A stretch of 64,000 bases of DNA from Candidatus Nanohalarchaeota archaeon (GTDB taxonomy: Archaea > Nanohalarchaeota > Nanosalinia > Nanosalinales > Nanosalinaceae), in the NCBI GenBank assembly GCA_022729235.1, contig JALDAJ010000001.1, positions 576,001-640,000 on the forward strand, written 5' to 3'. Made by a program: the position numbers and the translations under genes. The notes under the pieces were generated by a model, which ran no database searches, had not been told where the DNA came from, and saw nothing but the letters and a program-made list of their open reading frames with translations. Shown piece by piece: positions 42,770 to 50,186 of this stretch (its first letter is position 1; every line of letters begins with the position of its first letter).

Positions 42770-44512
42770 TCAAAATTCTTTGAGGTCGTTTCCGTCCATG
42801 AAACCTTTGAGGCTCTTCTCTAACTCTTCAACATTTACTCTTACCTGTTCAGTGGAGTCCCTGTCCCGGAGAGTCACGGTCCCGTCTTCCAGGGTCTGGT
42901 GGTCCACGGTCGCGCATATCGGCGTACCGATCTCGTCCTGCCGCCTGTAACGGCGACCGATAGCGCCTGAATCATCATACTTCACGGAGAAACCGCTTTC
43001 TCTTAGGCTCCTGGCGACTTTTCGTGCGCGCTCTCCCATCCCGTCCTTATCCATCAATGGGAATACAGCCACTTCTACAGGTGCGACTTCCGCGGGTAAG
43101 CGGAGAACGGTTCTCTCCTCTCCATCTACTTCGTCTTCCTCAAGGTTATGCGCTAGAACCGTGTAGAGTATTCGGTCGACACCGAACGACGGTTCTACAG
43201 TTTCAGGCATGATATGTTCTCCGGTCTCCTCAACTTCTTTTCGTGTAAATCCTGTTTTCTCCACGGGAACATTTACAGTCTCGCCATCGATTTCCAAGCT
43301 GATGCTTTCCTGCTCCTCGAACCTCTCCGGTTCTTCCTCCGCGATTCTCCCGAGTTCGTCCGCGATATCTGAGGCGCGGTCACCGTATTCAGGTCCAAGG
43401 ACGCTCATGTCTGGACTGACGGTTGCTTTCTCCACGGTCTTGGGCTCGTCGTATGGCTTGAAAACAGTGAAGTCTTCGCCCGAGTGCTCCTGGTGCTTCT
43501 TGAGGTCGTAGCATCCTCTGTACGCGAAACCTGTGATTTCAATCCAGTCACCTCCGACTTCAGATTCGGCGTCCCAGCAGTCGCTCGCGTAGTGCGACCT
43601 CTCGTCCTCCAGGTGCTGCCGGAACCTGAACCGGTCCATATCGATACCTATCCGCTCGTACCACTTCTTTGAGATACCGAGATAGTATGCTATCCAGTCG
43701 CTCGCGACCACGCCGTTTTCGACTGCTTCCGCCACGGTCATCTCGAGTACTTCTCCGCCGTCTTTATCCTGCTCGTTGATAGGGTAAAGGCGGAGCTCGA
43801 CGTCTTCCACGTCCTCCATTTCCGGTTCGTCTTTTTCTGGATCGATAAAGAACTCCAGCTCTGCCTGCGTGAACTCTCTGACGCGGACAATCGATTTCCG
43901 CGGTGATATCTCGTTCCTGTAAGCCTTTCCTATCTGTGTAACCCCGAACGGCAGCTGGTTGCGGGCGTATTCTTTCCACTGAGGGAACTCGACGAAGATT
44001 CCCTGAGCTGTTTCAGGTCGTAAGTAGCCGGGTGAGGAATCTCCTGGACCGATGTTTGTGCCGAACATCAGGTTGAAATCGTCGACTTCCACGTCTGCCA
44101 GTTCCTCGCCGCAGTTCGGACACTGGAGGCTGTTTTCTTCGATTATCTCCATTATCCTATCGGTGGAGAAGCTCTCCGCCTCCTCGATATCCGTGTTATC
44201 CTCGACCAGATGGTCTGCCCTGATGGATTCGCCGCACTCGGGGCATTCTATTATCATGTCGTCGAAGGTCTCAAGGTGCCCGGATGCCTCGAACACGTCT
44301 TCAGGCATGATTGTCGGTGCTTCTATCTCCATGTTGCCTTCCTGGTAGGTGAACCGGTCTCTCCATACATCCTCCAGGTTTCTCTTCAAGGCGGTACCGT
44401 GGGGTCCGAACGTGTAGAAACCGGCTGTACCTCCGTAAATCTCATTGGAGGGAATAAAAAATCCGCGTCTCTTCGCCAGTTCTTTCAGGCTCTGTGTGGT
44501 ATTCTGGGTCAC
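42770..44512 (-). CDS. glyS: Glycyl-tRNA synthetase (alpha2 type)
   Basis: RRGF, YLRPETAQG, RNEISPR, REFTQAE, EPSFGVDR, GRRYRRQDEIG; start GTG 44512 after SD GAGGTG. Confidence 0.97.
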   Translation of the reverse strand: MTQNTTQSLKELAKRRGFFIPSNEIYGGTAGFYTFGPHGTALKRNLEDVWRDRFTYQEGNMEIEAPTIMPEDVFEASGHLETFDDMIIECPECGESIRADHLVEDNTDIEEAESFSTDRIMEIIEENSLQCPNCGEELADVEVDDFNLMFGTNIGPGDSSPGYLRPETAQGIFVEFPQWKEYARNQLPFGVTQIGKAYRNEISPRKSIVRVREFTQAELEFFIDPEKDEPEMEDVEDVELRLYPINEQDKDGGEVLEMTVAEAVENGVVASDWIAYYLGISKKWYERIGIDMDRFRFRQHLEDERSHYASDCWDAESEVGGDWIEITGFAYRGCYDLKKHQEHSGEDFTVFKPYDEPKTVEKATVSPDMSVLGPEYGDRASDIADELGRIAEEEPERFEEQESISLEIDGETVNVPVEKTGFTRKEVEETGEHIMPETVEPSFGVDRILYTVLAHNLEEDEVDGEERTVLRLPAEVAPVEVAVFPLMDKDGMGERARKVARSLRESGFSVKYDDSGAIGRRYRRQDEIGTPICATVDHQTLEDGTVTLRDRDSTEQVRVNVEELEKSLKGFMDGNDLKEF

Positions 44513-44674
44513 TTTTGACACCTCTGGAAAAGTTGTCGATTAGAAGCCTTAAAAACCGACAGGACGAAAGAGCTAGAACTGGTTAAAGGGTTATTCGAAA
44601 CACGTGAAGTGTTTCTCAACGCAACTTCCTGGAGAAAGCTGCGAGAGTCCAAAGTAGCCACCCTTGATTGACAT
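44509..44674 (-). promoter_or_regulatory. glyS leader ORF MSIKGGYFG... with putative +1 frameshift cassette
   Basis: ATG TCA ATC AAG GGT GGC TAC TTT GGA; 0-frame stop 44591; +1 frame open to TGA overlapping glyS GTG. Confidence 0.75.
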
Positions 44675-44739
44675 AGATATCACAGTTGGTTCTGCTCGTG
44701 GAAAGCTTAAAAACCGTCCGAGTATTACGATGTAATATA

Positions 44740-45927
44740 ATGCCGGGTTCTGGAATGAAGAGTTTGGAAGATGCAGAGTTGGAAGGTAAAAGCGTGGTTC
44801 TCAGGACTGATCTAAACCTTCCTGTCGAGGACGGCGAGCCGCAGAAGACGGTCCGGTTTGAACGCTACATTGAAACAGTGAAGGAGCTCAGTGACGAAGG
44901 TGCGAGGACGATGGTAATCGCGCACCAGGGGAGACCGGCGAGGAAGGATTTCATGTCGCTGGAAAGACACGCAGAACTGATGTCGGAAGAGCTAGGGCAG
45001 GACGTTAACTTCGTACGGAGCTTCTTCGGACCGGAGCTTGGAGATGCAGTCGCCTCGATGGAGGACGGCGATGTAGTACTGCTTGAAAACATACGTTTCC
45101 TCTCCGAGGAGCTTCAAAACTTGCCCTCCGAGAGGCATTCTGATGATTATTTTATTGAGAATCTCTCCAGGTACTTCGATATTTTTGTAGACGATGCGTT
45201 CTCTGCATCACACCGCTCCCACGGATCGATAGTTGGATTCGTACCGCGCCTCGAATCCTATGCAGGACCTGTTATGCAGCGTGAACTGGAGAACTGTGGC
45301 AGGGTAAGAGATGAGCTTGACAATCCGTTGCTGGTTCTAGGAGGGGAGAAACCTTCCGATTTGATAGGTATGATGGAGCAGGTAATTGACCGGGCTGAGA
45401 AAGTACTGCTGGGCGGTATCCCTGGCGAACTTGCACTCAAGCTCCAGGGAAACGATCTCGGCGGGAAATCCGAGTGGATAGAGGAGCAGGGCTTTGACGG
45501 TAAGAGCAAGGAGCTTCAAAGAATCATCGAAGAACACGAGGAAAAGATAGTTCTGCCTGTAGATGTCAGAACGGACTCAGGTAACCACAAGATCGGTGAA
45601 GTCCCGGAAGGAGAGATGACATGGGATATCGGAGAGGAGACGCGGGAAAGGTTCGTGGAAGAGATAGGTGACGCGGAATCGATTGTCATGAAAGGTCCTA
45701 TGGGTGCGTTCGAGGATTATCCTGAGGGCACGCGAGCGGTAATCGATGCGATAGCAGAAAACGATGGCTTTACAGTACTCGGCGGAGGACACACATCTTC
45801 ACTTATACACCGATTCGGTCATGACCTCGACGAGTTCACACACGTCTCCATCGCGGGCGGAGCATTTGTCCGGTACATGAGCGGGGAAGAACTGCCCGCG
45901 GTCGAAGCGCTCAGGGAGTATTCTTAG
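44740..45927 (+). CDS. pgk: Phosphoglycerate kinase
   Basis: RTDLNLP, AHQGRP, LLENIRF, DAFSASHRSHGS, GGGHT, HVSIAGGA; start 44740 or 44755. Confidence 0.95.
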   Translation: MPGSGMKSLEDAELEGKSVVLRTDLNLPVEDGEPQKTVRFERYIETVKELSDEGARTMVIAHQGRPARKDFMSLERHAELMSEELGQDVNFVRSFFGPELGDAVASMEDGDVVLLENIRFLSEELQNLPSERHSDDYFIENLSRYFDIFVDDAFSASHRSHGSIVGFVPRLESYAGPVMQRELENCGRVRDELDNPLLVLGGEKPSDLIGMMEQVIDRAEKVLLGGIPGELALKLQGNDLGGKSEWIEEQGFDGKSKELQRIIEEHEEKIVLPVDVRTDSGNHKIGEVPEGEMTWDIGEETRERFVEEIGDAESIVMKGPMGAFEDYPEGTRAVIDAIAENDGFTVLGGGHTSSLIHRFGHDLDEFTHVSIAGGAFVRYMSGEELPAVEALREYS

Positions 45928-45985
45928 GGTCCGGATGTTGCTGACTGTCGAAATATACTTAACGCAGACTTCACAATAATGACGT

Positions 45986-46152
45986 ATGCAGCAAGGTGGC
46001 TGTTTTTGGACTTTTGCATCTGAATGATTTAGACAGCAGTATTTCTATTCCGGGTGGATGTTTTTGGGCCATCTAGTCTTCTAAAGGACAGGTTACGCTT
46101 TTCCCTGAACTATCTCAGAATCTGCTCAGTAAGGGAGCTTTCATGGCTTTAA
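45986..46152 (+). promoter_or_regulatory. Tandem Trp leader with two GGCFW cassettes chained by +1 frames
   Basis: MQQGGCFWTFASE*; its +1 frame reads ...SISIPGGCFWAI*. Confidence 0.7.
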
Positions 46153-46294
46153 TCAATTAAATCGGTTTTTATACACTTCAACATATTTTCTAAGTCTTTT
46201 AGATAGAAATAGTCATTATTCTATCTTTTTAGACTCTAAAAACCTCTAAAAGCTATTTAAAAGTTTTCTAACAACTGGAAAACACGTGATTAAA

Positions 46295-46369
46295 ATGACA
46301 AACGACACACAAGACGAAACACAGGCAGAAGCCCGACAGGGGGGATGTTTTTGGAGAACAAAATCTTGA
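46295..46369 (+). promoter_or_regulatory. Trp leader ORF MTNDTQDETQAEARQGGCFWRTKS*
   Basis: CAG GGG GGA TGT TTT TGG; TTTAAA box at about 46256. Confidence 0.7.
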
Positions 46370-46389
46370 AGAAGTTGTAAAGGGGGGCA

Positions 46390-46725
46390 TTGCTGGAGCA
46401 GGGTAGAGAAAGGGCTGTTTCGGTAATTGATAACTGTCTAACGATTGATGTAGACTCTTTCGATGAGGAAGTCTATTCAGAGGTTTTTGAGGTGCTGTTT
46501 TCTCCTGAAGAAGGATATCTAAGAGATGTTCCAGAGGACTTCCAATTCCGGCTCAGAAAAATATCGAGGTTCACTGTCGGCTGGGGTACGGAGTACTCGG
46601 AAACATATTCCAATGAACTAACTGGCCGTGATATCCGGGAGATGCAGAGGAAGGCGGTTGAAGAATCGTACACAGTTGGCTATTCCTCTGAAAAGTTCAT
46701 CGAACTGTACGAGGAGGTGATGTAG
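46390..46725 (+). CDS. Hypothetical protein upstream of trpS; true N-terminus uncertain
   Basis: Acidic ORF with TTG start; would continue the leader +1 frame if G6 at 46382-46387 were G5. Confidence 0.6.
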   Translation: MLEQGRERAVSVIDNCLTIDVDSFDEEVYSEVFEVLFSPEEGYLRDVPEDFQFRLRKISRFTVGWGTEYSETYSNELTGRDIREMQRKAVEESYTVGYSSEKFIELYEEVM

Positions 46726-46786
46726 TATCGCGGTAAGTGAGAAAGATTCCACCGGATATAAGAGCGCTAGGGAGGAATGATTAACC

Positions 46787-47890
46787 ATGCCAGAGATAGA
46801 TCCGTGGGGAGACGTTGAAGTCGGAGAGTACCGTGAAAAGATGGAGAAGTTTGGTATCGAGCCGATCGAAGAGATAGCAGATAAGCTCCCTGACCACCGA
46901 TACATAAGAAGAGGGATAATCTTCGGTCACCGCGGGATGGACGAGTACCTGGACGCGCTCGACGACGGCGAGGACGTGGCGATGATAACTGGTATAATGC
47001 CGTCCGGCATGTTCCACCTCGGGCACAAGATAGTGGTCGACCAGGTGCTGATGTACCAGGAGATGGGCGCAGACGTAACTCTCACTGCGGCGGACATCGA
47101 AGCGCACAACACCCGCGGTATCTCGCTGGAAGACGCGCGTGAGATGGTTATCGAGCAGTACCTGACCAATTACGTCGCTCTGGGTCTCGACCTGGAGAAC
47201 GTTGATTTCTACTTCCAGAGCCAGGCAGGCAACGACCACCTTGCCCGCTCCAAACTTTTCGCGAAGCACCTGACACGGAACGAGATGGACGCCACCTACG
47301 GAGAACCAAGTCCTGGTAAGATAGCGTCCGCATTAATGCAGTACGCCGACATACTGAGACCGCAGTTCCCGGAGAACGGCGGACCGAAACCAACTGTTGT
47401 TCCTGTTGGTATCGACCAGGACCCTCACATAAGACTGACCCGGGAGGTCGCGCGGAAGGCGTCTCAAGACTTCTACAAGCCCGCATCCATTTACAACAAG
47501 TTCATGCGCGGGCTTCAGGGTGGGAAGATGTCGAGCAGCGATCCGAAGAGCTACATCGCGCTTACAGATTCTGTTGAAGAGGAGAAACAGAAGATCGACG
47601 AGGCGAAGACTGGTGGTCGTGACACGCTGGAGGAGCACCGTGAGAAAGGTGCGGACGTTGAAGAGGACATGGTCTTCGAACTACTTGCTTTCCACCTTAT
47701 CGAGGACGACTCCGAGCTTGAACGTATCCGTGAAGAGTATGAGTCGGGCGAGATGCTGTCCGGAGAACTCAAGCAGATAGCGAAGGAGAAACTGGAGGAG
47801 TTCCTCCTCGCGCATAAAGAGAGGAGAGAAGACGCGCGTGAAGAAGTCGAACAGTTCGTCGAGGAGAACGTAGAGTCAGAACTTGTTTAA
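46787..47890 (+). CDS. trpS: Tryptophanyl-tRNA synthetase
   Basis: FHLGH, VPVGIDQDPH, KMSSS, AKTGGR, GEMLSGELK. Confidence 0.96.
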   Translation: MPEIDPWGDVEVGEYREKMEKFGIEPIEEIADKLPDHRYIRRGIIFGHRGMDEYLDALDDGEDVAMITGIMPSGMFHLGHKIVVDQVLMYQEMGADVTLTAADIEAHNTRGISLEDAREMVIEQYLTNYVALGLDLENVDFYFQSQAGNDHLARSKLFAKHLTRNEMDATYGEPSPGKIASALMQYADILRPQFPENGGPKPTVVPVGIDQDPHIRLTREVARKASQDFYKPASIYNKFMRGLQGGKMSSSDPKSYIALTDSVEEEKQKIDEAKTGGRDTLEEHREKGADVEEDMVFELLAFHLIEDDSELERIREEYESGEMLSGELKQIAKEKLEEFLLAHKERREDAREEVEQFVEENVESELV

Positions 47891-47914
47891 GTCCGGCTCC
47901 AGTATTTCTGACTT

Positions 47915-48610
47915 ATGTTGCCCGAGTTGATACTGCGTGAGGAGGAAGAGGAGAACCTTCCTCTGCTTGCAGTTCTAGGTCTCGCATCAGGTCTGGCAGG
48001 ATTTATTGCTGCAAGAGCTCTTTTTCCATCGCAGATAGATCTTCTTACGGTGATTTTTGCCTCGATACCGCTTGTATACCCTCTCGTGACGTATTTCCTG
48101 GAGCGTGAGAACGAGTCGCGACCCCATCTCCCGGAGATACAGGTCTACGGTTCGATTTTCCTTGGAATGGCGGCAGCATTCTTTATCCTGGGCTTGTATA
48201 ATCCTGAGTTATTCTCATTGCAGAATGCTATTATAGGTGCTGCAGGGCATGCAGTCAATCCAGTATCCTTCACCACGGTCTTATCCAATAACCTGATGGT
48301 GTTCCTGGGGATTCTGGCTGTCGCGTCGATTATAGGGTCGGCAGGAGCCTTTATACTGACCTGGAATGCCTCAGTCTTAGGAGTCTTCATGGCAGGGCTT
48401 GTACGTGACTCTATTCTCATGCCGTTCGCCTACATCCCCCACGCGTCTCTGGAGATGGCAGGGTTCATAGTCGCAGGAGTTGCAGGTACAATGATCTCTG
48501 CCGCAGTCTACAGAGAGCATTTCGATAAGGATACATGGCTCGACCTCTCAAAGCTGGTCGCCACGGGTGTTGGACTGATAGTCATCGCGGCGGTGCTGGA
48601 GACTGCGTAG
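47915..48610 (+). CDS. SpoIIM-family membrane protein
   Basis: NNLMVF, WNASVLG, PHASLEMAG, AAVLE. Confidence 0.85.
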   Translation: MLPELILREEEEENLPLLAVLGLASGLAGFIAARALFPSQIDLLTVIFASIPLVYPLVTYFLERENESRPHLPEIQVYGSIFLGMAAAFFILGLYNPELFSLQNAIIGAAGHAVNPVSFTTVLSNNLMVFLGILAVASIIGSAGAFILTWNASVLGVFMAGLVRDSILMPFAYIPHASLEMAGFIVAGVAGTMISAAVYREHFDKDTWLDLSKLVATGVGLIVIAAVLETA

Positions 48611-48641
48611 ATATTAAAATCTGTGGTACAAGAAGAGAGTT

Positions 48642-48798
48642 ATGTCACCATCCGAAGCACAGGGAACACTGAAGGGTGGACGTTTTTTCCGCCTGTGAAA
48701 GGCAGATTAACAGCTCTATTTCTGGATTGGTTTTTTCGAGGTCTCGGACAGGTATCGCTCAGATATTAAAGTTTAATTTGGGAGGTGTAAACCTGTGA
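48642..48798 (+). promoter_or_regulatory. pheS leader ORF MSPSEAQGTLKGGRFFRL* with putative +1 frameshift cassette
   Basis: AAG GGT GGA CGT TTT TTC; 0-frame stop 48698; +1 frame open to TGA 48796-48798 overlapping pheS GTG. Confidence 0.75.
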
Positions 48799-50186
48799 GA
48801 CTTTCAAGCCAGTCAATACAGGTTCTGGAAGAACTGAGAGAACAGAGCCCACGCACGGTCGAAGATCTGGAAAAAGAGGGATACGACCAGTCGATGGTTC
48901 ACCGTGCCGCGATGGAACTTGAAGAAAAAGGAATTGTTAACTACAGGGAGGAGGAAGAGGTAGAATGGGTCATAACTCCTGCCGGCGAAGAAGTAATTCA
49001 AGAAGGCTCGCCCGAGCACCAGCTAATAGAGAGGCTTGCGGATGGAGCTGTACCGCTCTCCGAACTTGAAGATCTCGACCTGGATGTCGCGCTTGGAAAG
49101 GCGCGGGAGAAGGGATGGGTCCGTATCAAGGAGGGCGAGGTCTCGCTTACCGAACAGGGACGGCAGGGTCTCGGCTCGGACCGTGTTCAAAACAAGTTAA
49201 AGGACCAGGAATACGACGAAGAGGTCCGTGAGAGAGGGCTGGTCGCGCCGCAGGAAAGAACTGAACGAATACTGGATTTGACTGGTGAAGGAGAAGCCAT
49301 AGATACAGGAGAGCTAGGAGAGGAGTTCAACGTCGAGGCGCGGGTGAAAACACCGCGGACAGGTAAGAAACATTTCTACCGCGAGATAATGGACTACGCC
49401 CGCCGTGTGTGGAAAGACATGGGCTTCGAGGAGATGAGCGGTGACTACGTCACCTCCGGACTGATGAACTTCGACGCGCTTTACATCCCGCAAGACCACC
49501 CTGCCAGAGAGCTCCAGGACTCGTTCTTCATGGAGACTCCGGCGAAAACAGATTTATCCATTTATGGGGGAAAGGTGCAGGAAGTGAAAGACGTCCACGA
49601 GTTTGGTGGTGATGCCGGCGGTAAGGGATGGCAGTACGATTGGTCGCGTGAAGACGCGGAAAGAAACGTGCTGAGAACACATACAACTGACGTTTCCGCG
49701 AAGAGGCTCCACGAGATGGAGATTAACGAGGAGGAGCTACCGAAAAAGTTCTTCTGTCTTGGTAGAGCGTTCAGGAATGAGACGGTTGACAGGACTCACA
49801 ACGCAGAGTTCTACCAGACCGACGGTATCGTCGTAGGAAAAGACCTGAGCTTCCGCAACCTGAAAGGTTACCTGAGCGAGTTCTTCGAGAAGATGGGTTA
49901 CAGCGAGTTCCGGCTTATCCCCTCCTACTACCCCTACACGGAGATGAGCGTAGAGGTACAGGTCTGGGACGATGAAGACGAGGAATGGCTCGGGATGGGT
50001 GGAGCAGGTATGTTCCGCCCGGAAGTTGTGAAACCGATGCTGGGCTTCGAGGCGACAGTACTGGCATGGGGTCTAGGAATCGGGAGGATAGCCATGATAA
50101 ACGCCGAACTCAACGATATAAGAGAGCTTTACAGGAACGATATCGAAATCCTGGAACAGACACCTGTATGGAGGCCTGATCAGTAA
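48795..50186 (+). CDS. pheS: Phenylalanyl-tRNA synthetase alpha subunit
   Basis: NFDAL, PQDHPARELQD, LRTHTT, FRNE, YYPYTE, GAGMFRPEV. Confidence 0.97.
   Translation: MRLSSQSIQVLEELREQSPRTVEDLEKEGYDQSMVHRAAMELEEKGIVNYREEEEVEWVITPAGEEVIQEGSPEHQLIERLADGAVPLSELEDLDLDVALGKAREKGWVRIKEGEVSLTEQGRQGLGSDRVQNKLKDQEYDEEVRERGLVAPQERTERILDLTGEGEAIDTGELGEEFNVEARVKTPRTGKKHFYREIMDYARRVWKDMGFEEMSGDYVTSGLMNFDALYIPQDHPARELQDSFFMETPAKTDLSIYGGKVQEVKDVHEFGGDAGGKGWQYDWSREDAERNVLRTHTTDVSAKRLHEMEINEEELPKKFFCLGRAFRNETVDRTHNAEFYQTDGIVVGKDLSFRNLKGYLSEFFEKMGYSEFRLIPSYYPYTEMSVEVQVWDDEDEEWLGMGGAGMFRPEVVKPMLGFEATVLAWGLGIGRIAMINAELNDIRELYRNDIEILEQTPVWRPDQ

Follow-up and report, generated by a model that had tools for sequence, protein, structure and literature searches.

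Synthetase loci of the window and their leader ORFs

We have analysed a 64,000-nucleotide (nt) stretch of contig JALDAJ010000001.1 from a Candidatus Nanohalarchaeota archaeon (assembly GCA_022729235.1, forward strand, positions 576,001 to 640,000), here called the window and numbered from its first letter, in which three aminoacyl-tRNA synthetase (aaRS) genes are preceded by short open reading frames (ORFs), the leaders, that carry a common cassette ending in a codon designated X. The genes are arranged in the order glyS on the minus strand, the divergent pgk, an 860-bp spacer, trpS, a SpoIIM-like membrane gene and pheS/pheT; the glycine-, tryptophan- and phenylalanine(alpha)-tRNA ligase identities of the three window genes are those of NCBIfam equivalog models. 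An earlier note on this DNA had quoted five cassettes, every one of which was recovered by string matching where it had been placed, and had assigned a short upstream ORF with the cassette to all three aaRS loci. This assignment holds generally, except that the middle Trp copy (46050-46067) lacks an in-frame ATG.

The glyS gene (42770..44512, minus strand) starts with GTG at 44512-44510, with an alternative GTG at 44521 and a Shine-Dalgarno (SD)-like GAGGTG 6 nt upstream. Its leader (44591..44674, minus strand) runs in the 0 frame from an ATG at 44674 to a TAA at 44591, 27 codons encoding MSIKGGYFGLSQLSPGSCVEKHFTCFE, and contains the cassette AAG GGT GGC TAC TTT GGA (44648..44665, minus strand), composed of an SD-like GGUGG, the E-site codon UAC, the P-site codon UUU and the A-site sensor codon GGA for Gly. 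A hairpin with a minimum free energy of -16.4 kcal/mol (z -4.6) lies directly 3' of the sensor codon (44615..44647, minus strand). The +1 frame is open from the shift site over 46 sense codons (44509..44649, minus strand), and the TGA that closes it, at 44511-44509, overlaps the glyS start codon at 44512-44510 as GTGA. Within this path a TATA-like box (44549..44557, minus strand), part of a block conserved in relatives, is situated ~32 nt before the glyS start and, as judged from its sequence, is likely to be a second glyS promoter. The leader itself sits in the divergent region, with no gene upstream to terminate. Two direct copies of RRAAGCYTTAAAAACCG were also observed in the glyS-pgk divergent region (44541-44560 and 44700-44719), one before pgk and the glyS leader and the other within the glyS +1 path; both resemble a transcription factor B recognition element (BRE) and TATA box.

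A corresponding arrangement is found at pheS (48795..50186, plus strand), identified as the alpha subunit gene by its NCBIfam model. The leader (48642..48698, plus strand) encodes MSPSEAQGTLKGGRFFRL, has a TATA-like GATATTAAAATC centred ~27 nt before its ATG and carries AAG GGT GGA CGT TTT TTC at 48672-48689 (plus strand), X being TTC. Its +1 path (48688..48798, plus strand; 36 codons) crosses a TATA-like box at 48762-48771 and an SD-like GGGAGGTG at 48780-48787 and ends in a TGA at 48796-48798 that overlaps the GTG at 48795, again as GTGA. The 0-frame stops lie 97-150 nt short of the genes, and the coordinates confirm that at glyS and pheS the 0 frame stops early and the +1 frame is open to GTGA.

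The trpS gene (46787..47890, plus strand; NCBIfam model) is preceded by three cassettes. The first Trp leader (45986..46027, plus strand), with a TATA-like ATATACTTAAC ~30 nt upstream, encodes MQQGGCFWTFASE and contains CAA GGT GGC TGT TTT TGG at 45992-46009 (plus strand), X being TGG. The second cassette, CCG GGT GGA TGT TTT TGG GCC ATC TAG (46050..46076, plus strand), has no ATG of its own and lies in the +1 frame of the first leader, whose +1 path covers 46008-46076. The third leader (46295..46369, plus strand) encodes MTNDTQDETQAEARQGGCFWRTKS and has its cassette at 46337-46354, where CAG GGG GGA TGT TTT TGG is a GGG GGA variant devoid of GUG; its +1 path (46353-46406) ends 14 nt within ORF111 (46390..46725, plus strand), an ORF between this leader and trpS for which no family match was obtained and which is without an ATG in its 5' part. 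The long acidic type to which the third leader belongs is also present in genomes G001, G018, G020 and G011. Trp leaders were seen to stand in tandem, a short first leader lying 270-345 nt ahead of a longer acidic one (..AEA[RQ][QK]GG[CR][FV]W) with AT-rich DNA between them, and it is the longer one that is coupled or fused to the target. Such tandems occur in the window at 45986-46406, outside it at genome positions 831463-831900 and at loci L145, L168, L170 and L116. In G001, a genome of the same genus, the Trp +1 path is one open 108-codon frame that ends 30 nt before trpS.

Codon X is cognate to the downstream synthetase

Distinct leaders of the source genome and its relatives were pooled, giving 137, with a pattern that forced GGTGG, YRY (pyrimidine-purine-pyrimidine) and NTT; matches were kept if an in-frame ATG lay no more than 150 nt away and the 0 frame stopped within 120 nt. 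An aaRS gene is present within 1.7 kb downstream of 94 of the 137 leaders, and in all 94 X is a codon for the amino acid of that synthetase. Eleven amino acids are represented: Thr (26 leaders), Ser (16), Gly (15), Val (11), His (7), Trp (6), Tyr (5), Cys (3), Phe (2), Pro (2) and Leu (1). The claim that X is always the amino acid of the downstream synthetase, made at first for three loci, is therefore borne out across the pooled set. Targets other than synthetases also fit X, an Ile leader preceding a PALP enzyme, a Leu leader a glutamine amidotransferase, and Trp leaders a PF00591 TrpD-type protein, an aminotransferase and a peptidase of family M20. The 0-frame stop occurs 18-87 nt past the first G of the cassette in 137/137 leaders, a range partly imposed by the <=120-nt filter. 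In one leader alone is the target not obviously connected with the amino acid of X: at L161 of genome G017 the +1 frame of a Lys-type leader (MQGGCFKRRRMYEKN) stops right next to a gene for endonuclease V.

The +1 frame leads to the synthetase start or into start-less genes

Frame relationships were examined in 85 leaders, nine of the 94 having been set aside because their aaRS start is at least 450 nt away. In 84/85 the +1 frame first meets a stop no more than 20 nt from a candidate aaRS start, with an exact ATGA or GTGA overlap in 37, as compared with 11/85 for the -1 frame; closure of the +1 frame at or next to the start codon had been predicted. Similarly, the frame is open as far as the aaRS start in 84/85 leaders for +1 and in 14/85 for -1. 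The binomial tail for 84/85 at p = 14/85 is 1e-64, a value overstated by the relatedness of the leaders. All 11 leader types obey this frame rule. The bridges between leader and gene are wholly different in sequence and length among types and cross AT-rich, promoter-like blocks, and it is in the +1 frame alone that they are without stops.

At a further set of loci the +1 frame does not end at a start codon but goes on for 108-397 codons into proteins whose first ATG is 45-157 codons in. These fused products comprise a GNAT-like protein, a class I/II aminotransferase, a PF00591 (TrpD-type) protein and an 'IGVP' protein preceding hisS; a HisG-like long ORF without a start of its own is also entered by a leader +1 frame. 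In the GNAT-like and IGVP-type proteins, conservation starts with the first codon past the shift site. The GNAT-like fusion was found in three genera (G018, G020, G002) and the IGVP-type fusion in two (G011, G007), the homologue in the source genome having its own GTG start.

The cassette is conserved as an RNA signal

The earlier note described the cassette as containing a pair of glycine codons. Conservation of the GGU/GG element is confirmed, but the constraint falls on nucleotides and not on the peptide. The first Gly codon is GGU, with the third Trp copy of the window as sole exception, and the second is GGA in 121/137 pooled leaders. Across the variants GGUGGA, GGUGAA, AGUGAU and GGUGAC, which encode Gly-Gly, Gly-Glu, Ser-Asp and Gly-Asp, RGUGR is kept in all; the dipeptide thus varies while RGUGR stays, as expected of a nucleotide signal. 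The organism's own 16S 3' end is GGAUCACCUCCA, in which UCACC can pair with RGUGR 4-5 nt before the P-site codon, so that the pairing proposed for the G-rich element is available in this organism. The E-site codon is always YRY, namely CGY, UGY, CAY or UAY, which specify four chemically unlike residues, and the P-site codon is always NUU, mostly UUU. Nascent-peptide arrest by K-G-G-x-F was considered as the main constraint and rejected, as the Gly-Glu, Ser-Asp and Gly-Asp variants keep nucleotides, not residues.

The P-site codon and X are not independent. GUU is used only with X starting with C or U (28/28), UUU being found with any first base (Fisher p = 5e-10 by leader and 0.02 by amino-acid type). 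Such a rule is expected if peptidyl-tRNA must re-pair after a +1 slip.

RNA structure is not a general component of the leaders. No general structure was detected in the 40 nt after X (mean z -0.28 over 137 leaders vs -0.22 in upstream controls). A hairpin follows X in 13/15 Gly leaders, with differing stem sequences, and is not general in other leader types. An Rfam search of window positions 44400-48900 at E <= 1 returned 0 matches, T-box included. T-run length is likewise not conserved, TAC TTT GGA having T3.

Distribution in the source genome

In the window the loose core GGNGGNNNNTTT is mildly enriched, with 14 matches vs 7.3 +/- 2.5 expected and 2/100 shuffles reaching 14. The strict pattern ARGGTGGNYRYNTT gives 14 matches in the source genome vs 1 for the reversed control, 13 of the 14 being leader-type; the remaining match (genome 1018353-1018366, minus strand, outside the window) lies within a long coding ORF (..GKGGYVEYGEDGK..). 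A scan with GGTGGNNNNTT gave 56 matches, of which the intergenic ones are almost all tiny ATG-started ORFs of the type M-x-[KQ]-G-G-[CRYH]-[FV]-X. The copies in the spacer upstream of trpS, reading GG(T/G)GG(A/C)TGTTTTTGG, are three and occur nowhere else in the genome; correspondingly, the 15-mer GGKGGMTGTTTTTGG has three copies in the whole 1,027,595 bp, all in 45995-46354. Two other interpretations of these 15-mers, which flank the AT-rich 46100-46300, were discarded on finding the same cassette before other synthetase genes: replication-origin (ORB-like) repeats and a 'GCFW' pseudogene remnant of MsrA.

Pfam and NCBIfam searches located aaRS genes of the source genome (G000) at 18 loci, of which 10 (Thr, Ser, Gly, Val, Leu, Phe, Trp, His, Cys and Lys) have a short ATG-started ORF upstream. 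The consensus of these leader ORFs is R-GUG-R-N / YRY / NUU / X, where X is the cognate codon: ACC for thrS, TCC for serS, GTA for valS, CTA for leuS (P-site codon and X being GTT CTA) and CAC for the operon ending in hisS. The cysS (AGT GAT CGT TTT TGT) and lysS (GGT GAC TGC TTT AAG) leaders were added by a relaxed scan for NTT, a cognate codon and a +1 frame reaching the start. No leader was found in this genome for the Glu, Arg, Tyr, Ala, Asp, Ile, Met or Pro aaRS. As had been expected, the cassette recurs here upstream of other aaRS genes, those for Thr, Ser, Val, Leu, His, Cys and Lys; the system is not universal. X codons are not rare, GGA, ACC and GTA making up 36%, 28% and 27% of their codon families, and a rare-codon design was rejected on this ground. 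ARAGORN reports only 15 tRNA genes in the 1.03 Mb genome, 2 of them in the window, and most tRNA genes must be non-canonical (with introns or as split genes) or were missed.

Leaders without an aaRS behind them are also present in the source genome, in the form of an Ile+Leu composite, a second Trp pair and a Tyr-type leader. Composite leaders have two sensors per ORF, Ile then Leu or Val then Leu, are conserved across genera (genome 457109-457200, plus strand, outside the window; loci L142, L156, L065 and L127) and precede proteins without Pfam matches, of 376 or of 130-170 amino acids. The +1 frame of the Tyr-type leader (genome 968115-968214, minus strand, outside the window) is an AbrB/SpoVT-like peptide without Met, and the His leader (operon 884411-886928, outside the window) stands before another AbrB-like small gene; there are hints here of a second regulatory tier.

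Distribution in relatives

The phylum is represented in GTDB by 70 species genomes, all in one order. Across these genomes the strict pattern gives 372 matches vs 120 for the reversed control, the family of the window contributing 317 vs 78 and the other four families 55 vs 42. In a gene-first scan, which looked for a cognate leader whose +1 frame reaches the aaRS start at loci with usable upstream DNA, leaders were found at 19/28 thrS, 15/27 serS, 14/27 valS and 17/26 glyS loci, X being GGA in the glyS leaders. GUG is at the fixed spacing in 63 of these 65 leader loci, that is, in 63 of the 108 Thr, Ser, Val and Gly loci, and at 0 loci is a non-cognate X combined with GUG at the conserved spacing. 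Orthologues in relatives keep the cassette, as had been predicted. The same scan found a leader at 0/18 MetRS, 0/28 GluRS and 0/28 AspRS loci and at 0/5 ArgRS loci, few of the last being left by the E-value cut. At IleRS the score was 1/29, a leader without GUG judged to be chance, and at LeuRS 2/13, one being the source genome's own and the other lacking GUG. AlaRS, ProRS, TyrRS, PheRS, TrpRS and HisRS were covered by a motif-first census instead, which in 15 relatives added Tyr, Cys and Pro leaders before their synthetases.

Beyond the phylum the search covered the exact Thr leader pattern, which in ~185,000 species genomes occurs at 24 loci. A nanohaloarchaeal-type ThrRS gene lies directly downstream in 18 of the 24; one locus is cut by a contig end, and five are bacterial matches without ThrRS, consistent with chance. 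One of the 18, L227, filed under a Colwellia polaris metagenome-assembled genome, has a Thr leader and a thrS 77% identical to that of the source genome; its contig is probably nanohaloarchaeal and mis-binned into the bacterial assembly.

Transcription and initiation context

An AT-rich, TATA-like peak is present at -36..-24 before leader ATGs. A TATA-like element at such a distance is the geometry of leaderless or short-leader archaeal mRNAs, and the leader ORFs are probably leaderless. In the most frequent form (47/137) the ATG is 6 nt before GGU. The aaRS starts differ in context, as an SD-like 4-mer occurs at -15..-4 in 59/85 vs 4/85 and 16/85 in control windows, an enrichment which points to internal starts on a longer mRNA.

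The earlier note had also raised the concern that transcripts might begin at internal TATA-like boxes and so leave the leaders off the aaRS mRNA. The boxes are real and conserved: an AAAACC-N-TTNAAA block, BRE/TATA-like in the manner of the leader promoters, is situated 25-45 nt before many aaRS starts and includes the window boxes near 44553 and 48766. Another outcome named as damaging was not encountered, the cassette being present, with a cognate X, before further synthetase genes. The proximal block is probably a promoter for basal, leader-independent synthetase mRNA, to which the leader transcript would add an inducible share. Overall, the predictions made at the level of sequence were all supported.

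Proposed mechanism and alternative explanations

The leader architecture, its conservation, the cognate rule and the frame rule are observed. We consider it likely that the leaders are short upstream ORFs acting as amino-acid-specific +1 frameshift sensors, with termination-reinitiation or fusion as the subsequent step. The ribosome would read the leader from its ATG through R-GUG-R-N, YRY and NUU until the wobble-read NUU is in the P site and X in the A site. With ample charged tRNA for X, X would be decoded, a stop would follow within a few codons and the gene would not be reached. With scarce charged tRNA the A site would remain empty, RGUGR would pair with the 16S 3' end and the peptidyl-tRNA would slip one base forward, translation going on in the +1 frame, which either ends on or near the synthetase start (ATGA/GTGA), permitting reinitiation, or enters the body of a start-less gene. 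A shortage of an amino acid or of its charged tRNA is thus predicted to raise the output of the corresponding synthetase, peptidase, aminotransferase or biosynthetic enzyme. Leader transcripts, the frameshift, its dependence on charging and reinitiation are what we infer from these sequence patterns.

Extended to the phylum, this interpretation holds that Nanohaloarchaeota possess a regulon of protein-free sensors in which a hungry codon within a prfB-like cassette triggers a +1 shift to a synthetase start or into start-less genes, to which we assign a probability of about 0.65. Several observations weigh against the frameshift sensor. The trpS leaders would have to work via the tandem and ORF111, which is not in the frame taken by the third leader's +1 path; an indel, an error of assembly or reinitiation may lie behind this mismatch. 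In the source genome the His leader has a +1 frame that closes 29 nt inside the next gene, and in the Ile/Leu composite leaders the +1 frame closes >100 nt short of the next ORF. X codons are common, so that sensitivity must stem from context and not from tRNA rarity. With a purine-initial X (Thr, Gly, Val, Ile, Lys), tRNA-Phe would keep only 2/3 pairs in the +1 frame. Given the proximal BRE/TATA-like block, much aaRS mRNA may start downstream of the leader. The counts rest partly on a crude ORF map, on rough starts and on the choice of the nearest candidate start, and as the leaders share descent, p-values overstate. Finally, GUG is in the +1 frame in 82/82 coupled cassettes, a point taken up below.

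Alternatively, the ribosome could stall at X without a change of frame, thereby stabilising the mRNA, averting premature transcription termination or polarity, or opening a structure that hides the start, much as in erm-type induction or in attenuation by the leader peptides of bacteria. This explanation accommodates the cognate rule and the leaderless geometry equally well, aaRS starts have an SD-like element of their own (59/85), and the conserved hairpin after X in 13/15 Gly leaders is in its favour. We nevertheless regard it as unlikely because it leaves unexplained the open +1 frame to the start (84/85 vs 14/85), the start-less ORFs fused in the +1 frame with conservation from the shift site, and the restriction of GUU to a pyrimidine-initial X; nor was a general downstream structure or, in window positions 44400-48900, an Rfam match found.

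The GUG within RGUGR provides a second alternative, in which the +1 frame is an upstream ORF starting at this GUG and coupled to the synthetase, and the ATG leader modulates its initiation. The GUG is at the same position in all 82 coupled cassettes, the ORF listing of the window includes 44509..44661 (minus strand) and 48676..48798 (plus strand), and haloarchaea can initiate on leadered mRNAs without an SD. This we consider quite improbable: in the commonest leaders (47/137) the GUG is 7 nt from the likely 5' end with no SD before it, a ribosome stalled at X would cover the GUG so that starvation would lower synthetase output, the wrong sign, the conservation of YRY and NUU and the GUU/pyrimidine rule are left without a reason, and the third Trp cassette (GGG GGA) has no GUG in the +1 frame. 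The idea of a non-decoding DNA or RNA site (a protein site, an oligo-T terminator or a repeat remnant) with a coincidental codon match is highly improbable and close to refuted by the cognate rule, the frame rule and the gene-first scan, since, even though several cassettes have T4-T6 runs after upstream genes (pgk, the SpoIIM-like gene) and the three Trp copies form a local repeat, X is cognate in 94/94 across 11 amino acids, the leaders have in-frame ATGs and early stops and obey the frame rule, the glyS leader has no upstream gene to terminate and T-run length is unconserved.

Implications

To our knowledge, next to nothing has been established about how archaea adjust their synthetase levels to the supply of amino acids, while T-boxes and leader attenuators belong to bacteria. 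If the frameshift sensor is real, it would be an archaeal counterpart of both, the first natural use of hungry-codon frameshifting as a regulator and the first cellular programmed +1 frameshift in Archaea, and would provide a modular, 15-nt, codon-programmable sensor of tRNA charging. The leaders would then fill gaps named in the relevant parts of reviews of 2016 (PMC5009743) and 2021 (PMC8211752). A host-dependent DPANN symbiont would, in that case, monitor Thr, Ser, Gly, Val, Leu, Ile, Phe, Trp, Tyr, His, Cys, Pro and Lys; leaders for Glu, Asp and Met were not seen in the gene-first scan, the motif-first census or the source genome. The mechanism would also account for nanohaloarchaeal genes that look start-less or frameshifted (GNAT-like, TrpD-like, aminotransferase). 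Standard gene callers will miss or mis-start leaders and fused genes, which is of relevance for annotation.

Comparison with known systems

Bacterial attenuation leaders include trpL, hisL, pheL, thrL, the ilv and leu leaders and the pheST leader. In these, as proposed here, a short upstream ORF with cognate codons senses charged tRNA and sets the expression of genes for the same amino acid, and the composite Ile+Leu and Val+Leu nanohaloarchaeal leaders can be likened to them. Bacterial attenuation uses runs of cognate codons, whereas the nanohaloarchaeal leaders have one per sensor, at a fixed place, which would be read out by a change of frame. Terminator/antiterminator alternative hairpins were not found in the 40 nt after X, where only the Gly leaders fold.

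T-boxes resemble the proposed leaders in turning on synthetase and amino-acid genes in response to uncharged cognate tRNA and in the use of a single specifier codon; they differ in binding tRNA directly, without a ribosome. GGGUGG resembles the T-box sequence, and its 6-nt spacing to X rules out one tRNA touching both. T-box-like tRNA binding via GGGUGG was rejected on this spacing, the lack of an Rfam match in the region searched and the ORF and frame architecture.

For the proposed final step, termination-reinitiation at ATGA/GTGA overlaps was demonstrated experimentally in Haloferax volcanii, with coupling in 13/14 tested pairs (PMC6728339). The overlaps described there often have an SD-like element upstream of the downstream start, as do many nanohaloarchaeal aaRS starts. 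The upstream partner in H. volcanii is an ordinary gene in its own frame; in contrast, the upstream frame of the leaders would be reachable only after a frameshift.

Antizyme +1 frameshifting, as presented in the corresponding part of the 2016 review (PMC5009743), is similar in that the shift is both sensor and effector of a metabolite circuit. It differs in sensing polyamines at a stop codon, in its 3' pseudoknot and nascent-peptide modulators and in being confined to one gene family.

In the portion of the 2021 review that deals with archaeal recoding (PMC8211752), a single -1 shift is the cellular entry and the +1 entry is no more than a suspected viral one, and a full-text literature search together with the pertinent sections of both frameshifting reviews (PMC5009743, PMC8211752) yielded no description of such leaders. 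The 2016 review states, where it treats hungry-codon shifts, that of starvation-specific trans-frame proteins 'no examples are known', and it describes UUU_Y as especially +1-prone in bacteria (PMC5009743). A slow sense codon in the A site next to a putatively shift-prone P-site codon would be shared by the leaders with hungry-codon shifting in starved E. coli and with yeast Ty1/ABP140 (CUU_AGG_C) and EST3. At Ty1-type sites a set ratio is fixed by a rare tRNA, whereas the leaders have a common X codon in a conserved device tied to the cognate gene; starvation shifting in E. coli is a laboratory phenomenon, unlike this conserved device.

The closest likeness is to prfB. Its E-site codon in E. 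coli is UAU, of the same YRY type as in the nanohaloarchaeal leaders. As prfB is described in the sections devoted to it, further common features are a 0-frame ORF of small size, an SD-like element within it that lies a few nt 5' of the shift codon and pairs with the 16S 3' end, a product encoded only in the +1 frame, a wobble-read P-site codon ending in UU and a slow A site that reports the level of the regulated factor. A +1-frame product without a start of its own is found among our loci in the fused cases only, the synthetases having their own start. Those sections also treat the prfB glycine codons as incidental to the SD (PMC5009743), the same argument for SD and not glycine that applies here. 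The differences are that the slow codon of prfB is a stop read by the gene's own product, whereas in the leaders it is a sense codon at which charged tRNA would be sensed; that prfB is one gene, as against a dozen specificities per genome in an archaeon; and that prfB output is by fusion, that of the leaders mostly by stop/start overlap with putative reinitiation. We therefore class the leaders with regulatory programmed frameshifting, as a variant that stands at the outer edge of this category. By analogy, they would work like prfB but without its defining feature, the stop codon read by its own product, and would do the job of T-boxes and attenuators without the RNA structures of either.

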